A DNA stretch of 26,107 nucleotides, taken from the NCBI GenBank assembly GCA_044356215.1, contig JBIKWQ010000050.1, forward strand, positions 1 through 26,107, read 5' to 3'. The notes below the pieces were generated by a model, which saw only the letters and a program-made list of their open reading frames with translations, made no database searches and was not told the DNA's origin. Every line of letters starts with the position of its first letter. Positions within the stretch are counted from its first letter, which is position 1. The stretch is from Bdellovibrionota bacterium. Lineage in GTDB: Bacteria > Bdellovibrionota_C > UBA2361 > OMII01. A program made the translations under genes and the position numbers. Of the stretch, positions 23,679 to 26,107 are shown in pieces.

Positions 23679-25067
23679 TTATTCAGGCCTTAGCCAGGAC
23701 AAAAGCTTTATGGAGCTGATTCGTAATCCCTTAAGCCATCCCACCGGTTCGACATCATTGCTCGGCGCCTGAATCGTCTCGTGCGGGAGCCGTGCCGGCA
23801 CTTGACCGTCTGTTTCGACTGATTGCGCCTTTGTCACACGAATCGGCTCGGGCATTTCTCGCGCATAGGCCTCGGTTTGCTGTTCAAGTGGGGCTTGTGA
23901 AATGACATCAAGCGGACTCATGACCCTGCGCGCGCTCTCCTCGGCTACATGGGTGTAAATCATCGTTGTCTTAACATCATGGTGCCCCAAGAGCTCCTGC
24001 ACCGTTCGAATATCTACTCCTCTGTTCAGCCAATGAGTCGCGGCGCTATGCCTGAAGGTGTGGCAGGTTACCTTTTTGGCGATTCCGGTTTTTTTTACCG
24101 CTTGCGACAGCGCACTTTGCATTATGTCGTTGTAGAGATGGTGGCGTCCGATACGCTTTGAACGCGGGTCTACTGACCTCTTGTGGGATGGAAAGACGTA
24201 CTGCCAGCACCACTGTTTATTCGCATTCGGATACTTACGCTCCAGGGCATGTGGCAGGTATACCGCACCTAAGCCTTCTGCAAGGTCGAGCTCGTGCAGC
24301 TTCTTTGCGTATAGCAACTGCGCTTGTAAGGCATCTCGCAGACGTTTAGGAAGCGGAACGCTTCGATCCTTATGGCCCTTTCCATCCCGAATAATGATTA
24401 TTCCAGTCGCGAAATCGATATCTTTTACTCGTAACTTCAGGGCCTCCGCGAGTCTCATTCCGGTTCCGTACATTAAGCTCGCAATTACTCGTTTTACTCC
24501 CTTTAGTTCGGTCAGTATAGAGGTCACTTCTTCTATGCTAAGCACCGCCGGAAGCGAAACTGGTCGTTTAGCCCACCGAATTCCTTCCAGCTTTCCCAGG
24601 TCAATCTGCAGCACCTCGCGGTACAGAAACACCAAGGAATTTAGCGCCTGGTTCTGCGTAGCTGCGGCTACATTTTCGGAATCGGCGAGATAAGAGAGGA
24701 ACGCTGAAACGCACTGAGAGCTTAAGCTTGCAGGATGCCGTCCTCCATGAAAGTCGATGAATCTGAGAATCCAACCTATATACCCCTTTTCCGTGAAGTG
24801 ACTCATGTGTCTCACTCGGATCACTTGACGGACGCGATCAACGAGGGAATTAACATCTTCAGTAATCTTAGTTGAGCTCAGATTCGCAACGACTGGCGAT
24901 TTGTACGGTCCGTATTCCGATTGCTGTCGCCATCTGGCAAAAGCGGTAAGATCGCGGTCTCCGGGGACGAACCAGCGCTTTACCGCCTGATCCCAACGGG
25001 CTCCAAGCCTTTTAGCATCCTCCTTTTCAGCGAATGGTACCCGTAGGTATACCCGTTCCCGTGTCAT
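23679..25067 (-). CDS. intI: Integron integrase with an N-terminal DUF5710 domain and a 75-aa C-terminal extension
   Basis: SAM-like N-domain (TEKGY..W..RF..FH..RHP; TQNQALNSL.FLY). Catalytic R-K-H-R-H-Y (GMR, RDGKG, HTFRHS, LLGH, TMIY). Integron-specific insertion VYLPHALERKYP..W.WQYVFPS..DPRS..RHHL. SD GAGG before ATG 25067. Confidence 0.95.
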   Translation of the reverse strand: MTRERVYLRVPFAEKEDAKRLGARWDQAVKRWFVPGDRDLTAFARWRQQSEYGPYKSPVVANLSSTKITEDVNSLVDRVRQVIRVRHMSHFTEKGYIGWILRFIDFHGGRHPASLSSQCVSAFLSYLADSENVAAATQNQALNSLVFLYREVLQIDLGKLEGIRWAKRPVSLPAVLSIEEVTSILTELKGVKRVIASLMYGTGMRLAEALKLRVKDIDFATGIIIIRDGKGHKDRSVPLPKRLRDALQAQLLYAKKLHELDLAEGLGAVYLPHALERKYPNANKQWCWQYVFPSHKRSVDPRSKRIGRHHLYNDIMQSALSQAVKKTGIAKKVTCHTFRHSAATHWLNRGVDIRTVQELLGHHDVKTTMIYTHVAEESARRVMSPLDVISQAPLEQQTEAYAREMPEPIRVTKAQSVETDGQVPARLPHETIQAPSNDVEPVGWLKGLRISSIKLLSWLRPE

Positions 25068-25334
25068 ATAATCCTCTCGATAACCCTAATGCTTCATTGT
25101 TTTCGCTCGTTCTCTGCTTGATGTCTCGATCTCACAGACCCGGCAAGAGATCATCGATGAATTTGGTAGAGAGTTGCGCCCTGGAACAGCAGAACTGCAG
25201 ATCTACCCACGGATTCTAAGGGTAGATCTCCAGGTTCGCGATTAAAGCGTACCGGTAGATATCCAAGTCAACAAAGCCTAACAAGCTGAAAAGAGGCCAC
25301 AACGCCTGCCTGCACAGCCACGAGATATGATGCG

Positions 25335-25364
25335 TTGTTTAAGATCTCCAGGTCGGGGTATACT
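25335..25364 (+). promoter_or_regulatory. Candidate cassette promoter Pc
   Basis: TTGTTT (25335-25340)-N18-TATACT (25359-25364), pointing into attI. Confidence 0.5.
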
Positions 25365-25378
25365 ACTGTGAGGAACTG

Positions 25379-25397
25379 GTGATTAATACTGTTCTGC
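25379..25397 (+). other. attI: attI core site (crossover G|TT at 25391/25392)
   Basis: GTTCTGCA at 25391-25398 is the exact reverse complement of TGCAGAAC (25935-25942), which opens the downstream attC. It lies upstream of, and divergent from, intI. Confidence 0.85.
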
Positions 25398-25983
25398 ATT
25401 TAGGTCACATTTTATGTCTGTAAGGCATAACTATATTCATATTAAAGTTTGGTAGGAATTCCTATGAACGATTTGACCCAAAGGGGTTCACGACCCCGGT
25501 TGACTCAGGAACAGATAGCAGAACGACTTGCGGCGGCTAGAGCGCGTGATCAAAGTCGCCAAGAAATTGAACCTGAAGTTAGAGCAGCGGAAGCCAGCTT
25601 TGCTGCTGACTTTATTGTTGGAGCTGTGCAAGCCTTGAAAAGGGGTGGCTTCCAACCCATTTTTCAAGCTCAAGGAATGGATCCTCGTCTGGAATATACG
25701 CACTTCAAGCTAGAGTCCTCTTTTCGAGGTCGGTTGGAAACTATTTGTAAACTTTTTGTCGGACCTGGATATGATCTGGATAGTCCTCCCCCAAACGCAG
25801 ATCAAGTGTATGATTTGGTTGATCCGGTTTTTCGTCAACTCCGAGCTGAACGGAGAGAGCATTGCTCCAGTGTGTGCTTTAGCTGGGGACCAACAGATCG
25901 TTCATTCGAATTACGTGCACAAAGTTGACGATTGTGCAGAACAAACAAATGGAGCCGACGCTAAAGCGCGGCTCATTCGGACG
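25392..25983 (+). mobile_element. Integron gene cassette 1 (592 bp)
   Basis: Bounded by the G|TT crossover points at 25391 and 25983. Contains a single ORF followed by attC. Confidence 0.88.
25464..25928 (+). CDS. Cassette-encoded hypothetical protein (154 aa)
   Basis: SD AGGA (25454-25457) precedes ATG 25464. The stop lies 7 nt before attC. No recognisable family. Confidence 0.8.
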   Translation: MNDLTQRGSRPRLTQEQIAERLAAARARDQSRQEIEPEVRAAEASFAADFIVGAVQALKRGGFQPIFQAQGMDPRLEYTHFKLESSFRGRLETICKLFVGPGYDLDSPPPNADQVYDLVDPVFRQLRAERREHCSSVCFSWGPTDRSFELRAQS

Positions 25984-25989
25984 TTGAAC
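25936..25989 (+). other. attC: attC site, 54 bp
   Basis: R'' gcagAAC, 5 nt, L'' aatggagc, cgacgc-taaa-gcgcg, L' gctcatt, 5 nt, R' GTTgaac. There are two unpaired extra bases in the left arm. Confidence 0.92.
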
Positions 25990-26010
25990 TAACCCGCTTG
26001 CGCGGAGGTT

Positions 26011-26107
26011 ATGTTGAGAGAATTTGCAATCCTGCTGGTGACGGCGGGATTTTTTTATTCTGAAATCAACAGGTGTCGCAGTCCCAGCCCGTCCCCGACC
26101 ACCCGAG
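26011..26107 (+). CDS. Start of the cassette 2 ORF (truncated by the window end)
   Basis: After R' GTTGAAC: GGAGG (26004-26008), then ATG/TTG. The frame MLREFAILLVTAGFFYSEINRCRSPSPSPTTR stays open to the window end and has a hydrophobic N-terminus. Confidence 0.55.
   Translation, partial: MLREFAILLVTAGFFYSEINRCRSPSPSPTTR

Follow-up and report, generated by a model that had tools for sequence, protein, structure and literature searches.

Here we describe an integron integrase with an additional N-terminal domain of the DUF5710 family, encoded by the intI gene of a Bdellovibrionota contig of 26,107 bases (JBIKWQ010000050.1). The window analysed here is this entire contig, which belongs to a 3.24-Mb, 131-contig, 96%-complete genome bin. 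The protein of 462 amino acids (aa) is a member of the integron integrases (IntI), all four defining features of which were found in it, and its DUF5710 codons are under purifying selection. The fusion has a single origin among the sampled IntIs, and the gene belongs to a complete, recently active chromosomal integron of an uncultured freshwater bacterium. In the literature searched, which did not cover subscription journals, no fusion of DUF5710 to an integron integrase was found described, and the combination is a narrow new variant.

Integron integrases act on folded single-stranded attC sites, and the resulting junction is resolved by replication. They are treated as minimal two-domain recombinases, whose dependence on attC and on replication is explained without an accessory module. 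As an explanation of the extra domain we tentatively put forward that one IntI lineage took over a small resident DUF5710 protein, now a tethered head that would target the enzyme to single-stranded DNA (ssDNA) or to replication forks; taken as a whole, this proposal stands at clearly less than an even chance.

Architecture of the fused integrase

The gene, its ribosome-binding signal, and the parts of its product are located in the window as follows.

23679..25067, minus strand: intI gene, 462 codons plus stop, comprising DUF5710, linker, integron integrase core, and C-terminal tail
24930..25055, minus strand: DUF5710 domain, aa 5-46 (Pfam; the own-genome scan gives the same coordinates)
24846..24929, minus strand: linker, aa 47-74, free of start codons; disorder predicted for aa 49-60
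24594..24845, minus strand: SAM-like core-binding domain, aa 75-158 (PF13495, 87.3 bits)
23940..24542, minus strand: catalytic domain, aa 176-376 (PF00589, 130 bits)
23682..23897, minus strand: C-terminal tail, aa 391-462, mostly disordered, its end formed by a conserved amphipathic motif of the W-L-[KR]-x-L-[WR] type
25072..25078, minus strand: Shine-Dalgarno-like GAGAGGA, 5 nt ahead of the first ATG

The N-terminal module matches DUF5710 (PF18974) in Pfam with an E-value of 2.8e-18 and 65.8 bits against a cut-off of 26.5, over profile positions 1-42 of 44, and reaches 70.1 bits in the own-genome scan. Behind the linker, Pfam assigns aa 75-158 to Phage_int_SAM_4 and aa 176-376 to Phage_integrase, and positions 2-314 of the 315 in the NCBIfam model TIGR02249, 'integron integrase', match aa 76-388 with 435.1 bits, the cut-off being 265. 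The integrase VchIntIA, whose structure is solved (2a3v, 320 aa), pairs with aa 78-387 only (E 9e-80), and the NF011946 model (337 positions) covers aa 75-390. The reference IntIs are thus without head and without tail, and the protein is a complete IntI with 74 extra residues at the N-terminus and 72 at the C-terminus. Six residues that we take to be the tyrosine-recombinase catalytic set (R, K, H, R, H/W, Y), namely R205, K230, H336, R339, H362, and Y371, are invariant or at least 90% conserved in an alignment of 121 IntIs (alignment A4). The IntI-specific insertion of the catalytic domain (the ALERKYPNA...WxWQYVFPS region) is present at aa 274-294, where it is nearly invariant and lies inside the alignment with 2a3v. 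A mixed alignment of IntIs and small DUF5710 proteins (A3) misplaced the small proteins, and A4 was used instead.

An earlier note on this DNA had placed a DUF5710 module at 24927-25067, which corresponds to aa 1-47, and had described it as fused in frame to a complete IntI, preceded by its own Shine-Dalgarno site, followed by a linker without methionine, and absent from characterised IntIs. The annotation agrees with this description throughout, and the observation on the linker extends to other start codons: the first in-frame ATG, GTG, or TTG after codon 1 is the GTG of codon 82, inside the integrase N-terminus.

AlphaFold2 folds the DUF5710 domain into a strand-helix-strand-strand-helix unit, with predicted local distance difference test (pLDDT) values of 77-86 when folded alone and of 86-94 for aa 11-40 in the full-length model, and predicts disorder for aa 49-60 and 411-462. 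A C-terminal tail of at least 30 residues beyond the SPLD motif is present in 56 of the 121 environmental IntIs of A4. This tail is variable and disordered and ends in a short amphipathic motif of W/L/F and R/K residues, here WLKGLRISSIKLLSWL, which occurs in unfused relatives too and could be a membrane- or partner-binding helix.

Integrity, selection, and origin of the fusion

An assembly artefact, which the earlier note had named as a way for the fusion to be spurious, is rejected. Two other runs have contigs, of 1966 and 6955 nt, that cover 24500-25393 with two differences each, and the stretch is present in 20 DNA runs from 15 studies, which are lake or freshwater metagenomes wherever labelled. 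Three of these 20 runs may be the source of the window itself, and no RNA run is among the 20 listed with the stretch.

The ratio of nonsynonymous to synonymous substitution rates (dN/dS) was calculated by the Nei-Gojobori method in three pairwise comparisons of the window and the fused loci L003 and L022, at dS values of 0.6-0.9. It amounts to 0.15, 0.16, and 0.08 for the DUF5710 codons and to about 0.05 for the integrase core, against 0.23-0.33 for the linker and 0.34-0.55 for the C-terminal tail. The DUF5710 block is also better conserved than linker or tail in the homologue alignment, and an open frame with a Shine-Dalgarno site is present in all fused members.

The homologue search returned 7949 of 8000 scored candidates at E<=0.001, and the architecture was examined in the best 120 listed. 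Among these, the combination of PF18974, PF13495, and PF00589 occurs in 12 other 90%-identity clusters (454-527 aa; 65-98% identity to the window protein), which disposes of a one-off fusion, a case that the earlier note had considered; the next IntIs, at 63% identity or less, are without DUF5710. A quick maximum likelihood tree (LG+G4) of 121 rows was restricted to the 316 columns of the core. In this tree the 13 fused rows and five short-called or fragment rows form one branch with a support of 99 in the Shimodaira-Hasegawa-like approximate likelihood ratio test (SH-aLRT); a tree of this kind had been proposed in the earlier note as a test of monophyly. The sister of this branch, P0024, is a row known without its N-terminus. 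The earlier proposal of a distinct integron integrase class holds as far as one conserved clade is concerned, and the word class overstates the rank of a shallow group (65-98% identity) that, among the 124 species genomes of the phylum, is restricted to a single genus.

With aa 1-110 as query, the fusion was traced through the species genomes of the order (91) and of the phylum (124). Among the 124 phylum genomes, a contiguous match occurs only in the genus of the window (G000, G006, and G009), with fragments in G004. The G009 copy (L075, on G009:C72) is interrupted by a stop at codon 200, and its similarity does not extend beyond residue 218; the G004 copy (L004/L076) consists of two fragments, aa 55-319 and aa 35-99, on two contigs. 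Other genomes of the same genus encode unfused IntIs of 53-64% identity. In five other IntIs of A4 (P0043, P0053, P0058, P0059, and P0120) the gene call includes 65-159 additional N-terminal residues that do not contain DUF5710 and may be real domains or mis-called starts.

Stand-alone DUF5710 open reading frames (ORFs) of 62-201 aa, 42-55% identical to the head, are found in 15 of the 124 phylum genomes, none of which is from the genus of the window. The head probably derives from the stand-alone genes for proteins of 60-100 aa that are common elsewhere in the phylum. Those of about 60-100 aa (L077-L082 and nine further genomes) sit among ordinary chromosomal or housekeeping genes; the synteny comparison gave no conserved neighbours for the stand-alone genes, and their surroundings therefore provide no functional hint.

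The integron and its cassettes

Upstream of intI, the window contains an attI site, one full cassette, and the start of another.

25144..25395: intI-attI intergenic block, common to the window and three other fused loci (alignment A5); conservation stops at the crossover
25194..25352: four copies of the 14-bp motif GGTAGATCTCCAGG with 0-3 mismatches, starting at 25194 (minus), 25221 (plus), 25254 (plus), and 25339 (plus)
25391..25393, plus strand: attI crossover triplet GTT, within GTTCTGC; foreign contigs diverge directly after it
25392..25983, plus strand: first gene cassette, with an ORF at 25449-25928
25936..25989, plus strand: attC of cassette 1, with R'' GCAGAAC (25936) and R' GTTGAAC (25983)
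25984..26107, plus strand: start of the second cassette, truncated where the contig ends

Conservation among the four fused loci spans 250 bases upstream of intI and stops at GTT(A/C)T on the cassette strand, and R'' of the first attC is the exact reverse complement of the 5' boundary of the cassette, GTTCTGC. The bottom strand of this attC folds at -12.1 kcal/mol with two bulged bases (z -3.1; 1 of 200 shuffles as good), and a mini-hairpin at 25975-26012 does not stand out from shuffled sequences, 35 of 200 of which fold as well (z -1.07). The fused locus L022, 78% identical, has an attC hairpin with z -5.3 that none of 200 shuffles equals; two further attC candidates of L022 reach no significance when treated as simple folds (z -1.17 and -0.79), and its cassette ORFs lie on the minus strand, opposite to intI. 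The ORF of cassette 1 in the window encodes 159 aa and has no Pfam family at E<=0.001.

Contigs of all four other runs compared agree with the window to 25393 or 25395 and then continue into four different sequences, and intI is about 99% identical among populations that differ in the sequence after attI. The different continuations show that cassettes have been exchanged at this attI from one population to another. The start of the first cassette of the window (25391-25450) was also found in run X6 behind a different sequence, so that in a different population this cassette occupies another position in the array. The 96%-complete genome yielded no second IntI, its three other matches scoring at most 27.6 bits. 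The flanking genes are chromosomal and encode an RND efflux system, LpxB, an ABC exporter, and a Kdo transferase.

Three of the GGTAGATCTCCAGG copies are direct and one is inverted, and the pair at 25194/25221 makes up a palindrome-like operator ahead of intI. All four fused loci contain three or four of these copies, whose spacing is conserved, and the rest of the 26-kb window has only one other match at up to three mismatches. These repeats could be accessory sites of IntI or a repressor operator.

Possible role of the head and comparison with known systems

At E<=0.001, 4026 representative proteins match aa 1-72, and the top of the list consists of proteins with 2-8 tandem copies. This exhaustive search ranks multi-repeat proteins first, and 60 of its 150 best representatives were scanned with Pfam; a word-indexed region search with the same query scored only 24 candidates, and neither search is a census of single-copy DUF5710-recombinase fusions outside the clade. 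Within the 60, DUF5710 is the only domain in 28 proteins and accompanies ArdC-N and/or MPTase in 18 polyvalent proteins, 11 of them with Toprim_3. The remainder combine it with Toprim_3 without ArdC (3), MobA relaxase (3), RNase_T (2), DnaJ (2), UvrD-like helicase (1), PADR1 (1), U-box (1), or the RNase H1 N-terminal domain (1). The word-indexed search adds five XseA fusions and one Toprim fusion. The Toprim_3 domains of the sample are primase-type, going by the portion of PMC5512222 that was available, according to which TraC1-type ArdC-N/Toprim proteins travel with ssDNA on transfer; Rep_3-DUF5710 plasmid initiators are reported in the accessible text of PMC11233732. The partners named earlier are thereby recovered as far as primases, helicases, and nucleases are concerned, topoisomerases are not among the 60 proteins sampled, and relaxases are to be added.

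As DUF5710 accompanies enzymes of single-stranded or replicating DNA, the most likely role of the head is to attach to such DNA, or to a protein present on it, and to concentrate the integrase there; the partner domains favour a tethered DNA- or replisome-targeting module. In the mechanism that we infer, a flexible linker of about 25 residues would tether an independently folding DUF5710 unit of 45 residues to a normal IntI core. The unit would serve the enzyme as a small accessory module that binds nucleic acids, most likely single-stranded or structured DNA. It would keep the integrase near folded single-stranded attC sites arising in replication or after conjugative DNA entry, and the integrase held there would recombine more of them. 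For DNA targeting by the head we see slightly less than an even chance. In this explanation, the gene is translated from the ATG at 25067 as a single 462-aa polypeptide.

Several results weigh against this proposal. DNA binding by the head is a prediction, and its targeting to ssDNA or forks is a reasonable reading of the partner domains. None of the 60 other DUF5710 proteins scanned has a recombinase domain, and the pairing is therefore without precedent in that sample; the U-box and DnaJ partners suit a protein ligand as well as DNA. A structural comparison of the head, suggested earlier, gave no similar solved structure: Foldseek against the PDB found no match at E<=0.001 (best E 1.4), and VIA-align over 48,161 chains found 13 at Z>=2 with a best Z of 2.5, so that the fold gives no functional hint. 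Cassette turnover shows that the integron is active, not that the head contributes to it. The clade is small and partly decayed, with two intact and two decayed species-genome copies, and the fusion has not spread. Motifs that are weaker than or related to GGTAGATCTCCAGG occur upstream of the unfused relatives L010 (two), L012 (one), and L013 (one), with none in L005 and L008. A public gene call of the same cluster, P0280 (375 aa), is identical to aa 88-462, starts at M88, and comes from a contig as long as the window. Finally, in one low-depth contig of run X13 (depth 7.8) a G is inserted behind 24906, within the codons of the linker; it would break the frame between head and integrase and may be an assembly error or a real variant.

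Further searches with the head were equally uninformative. The sequence of aa 1-72 matched PDB chains at the level of noise (best E 0.037, a plexin), and the ESM Atlas gave no usable matches to aa 1-60. A pattern reminiscent of HARP, which the earlier note had seen in the head, was recovered neither by Pfam nor in the structure lists. HARP (PF07443) has no row for the protein at E<=1 and is not among the 25 families shown of the 57 matched by 41 DUF5710 proteins at E<=10, and no HARP or SMARCAL1 chain appears in the Foldseek and VIA-align lists, which come from searches that are weak for small domains.

It seems unlikely that DUF5710 is a protein-protein adaptor that docks the integrase, like the primases, nucleases, helicases, and initiators with this domain, not on DNA but on a conserved host protein of the replisome or associated with ssDNA, such as the single-stranded DNA-binding protein (SSB), the sliding clamp, or the replicative helicase. 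SSB recruits a set of DNA-processing enzymes, which the partners of DUF5710 resemble (primase, DnaQ-like exonuclease, XseA, UvrD-like helicase, RNase H1-type domain, and Rep_3 initiator), and a canonical SSB with DDDIPF at its end is encoded in the genome. Arrays with 2-8 copies in tandem would suit avidity for a multimeric target, and U-box and DnaJ are protein-handling domains. The interaction itself is a prediction, and a predicted complex of DUF5710 aa 1-52 (alignment A2) with SSB residues 100-161 received a score of 0.00 and a mark of 0.32, which is evidence neither way. Moreover, DUF5710 is also a lone protein of 60-100 aa in chromosomal contexts, it is found in proteins with PADR1 or RNase H1-type nucleic-acid modules, and its net positive charge and conserved aromatic residues fit nucleic-acid binding as well.

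We regard as improbable that the head is an arm-binding-like domain, sequence-specific for the 14-bp GGTAGATCTCCAGG repeats, which builds or regulates the attI synapse or represses the intI promoter. The recurrence of the repeats at conserved spacing, with a single further match in the window, is what such a domain would lead one to expect, and the related motifs of unfused relatives speak against it, as does the presence of DUF5710, in arrays of up to eight copies, on many enzymes without a common target sequence. Class 1 IntI binds accessory attI repeats without any extra domain. The arm-binding fold consists of three strands plus a helix, from which the predicted strand order of the head differs. 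Neither a sequence nor a fold match to arm-binding domains was found by Pfam, Foldseek, and VIA-align, arm-binding chains are absent from the lists of the latter two, and no DNA-binding fold stood out. What is shared is the layout: the accessible part of PMC8138268 describes a small N-terminal domain that is flexibly tethered to the core-binding domain behind it.

It is very improbable that the head stands outside the working enzyme, through a start at codon 82-88 or as a neutral passenger of a local gene fusion, since the M88 call, the confinement to one genus, and the two decayed copies among four are set against the loss of aa 75-87 of the IntI model (TIGR02249 begins at aa 76, 2a3v at aa 78) that the M88 start would cause, DUF5710 dN/dS values of 0.08-0.16, an open frame and a Shine-Dalgarno site in all members, and a domain that is more strongly conserved than linker and tail.

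Two other proteins, P0014 (378 aa) and P0015 (375 aa), begin at the same aligned position as the M88 call; such calls omit the head, and fused IntIs are therefore under-counted in protein databases. Gene callers can thus hide fusions of this kind, the gene described here being itself on record as a 375-aa protein from M88.

If targeting by the head is correct, cassette capture would be physically coupled to replication or to incoming conjugative single strands. It would then be the first case of an accessory targeting domain on an integron integrase, and DUF5710, a domain of primases, relaxases, nucleases, and initiators with about 4000 representative proteins, would receive its first function. 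A natural and selectively maintained IntI with an extra domain offers a ready comparison with and without the head, which bears on how single-stranded substrates are found, and it is a tractable way into the function of a domain that is abundant on plasmid DNA-processing enzymes and unstudied. The clade itself is a narrow, environmental one that has no link to resistance integrons.

Integron integrases belong to the simple, Xer-like recombinases, unlike the arm-binding 'complex' tyrosine recombinases. IntI1 and VchIntIA (IntI4, 2a3v) are like the window protein in the core (aa 76-388, matched end to end by TIGR02249) and in the conserved catalytic residues, and they share the layout of an intI divergent from attI and attC-bounded cassettes. 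Both are proteins of 320-337 aa without extras, whereas the window protein has 74 more N-terminal residues, which include DUF5710, and a C-terminal tail of 72 residues. TraC1-type ArdC-N/MPTase/Toprim proteins and MobA-type relaxases carry the same Pfam domain, with 40-57% identity between the head and their single repeats, and the DUF5710 primases and relaxases resemble IntI in acting on DNA that is single-stranded at some stage. They contain 2-8 tandem copies in the middle or at the C-terminus, whereas a single copy stands at the N-terminus of the recombinase described here. Rep_3-DUF5710 initiators of Acinetobacter, as presented in the available text of PMC11233732, likewise join one DUF5710 to a site-specific DNA-binding enzyme; the enzyme is a plasmid replication initiator, not a recombinase, and that text also leaves the function of DUF5710 unassigned. 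From arm-binding recombinases the head differs in that no sequence or fold link of DUF5710 to their arm-binding domains was detected, and it is similar in its arrangement, as the 'complex' recombinases of the lambda Int type, in the portion of PMC8138268 consulted, likewise have an N-terminal accessory domain tethered to core-binding and catalytic domains.

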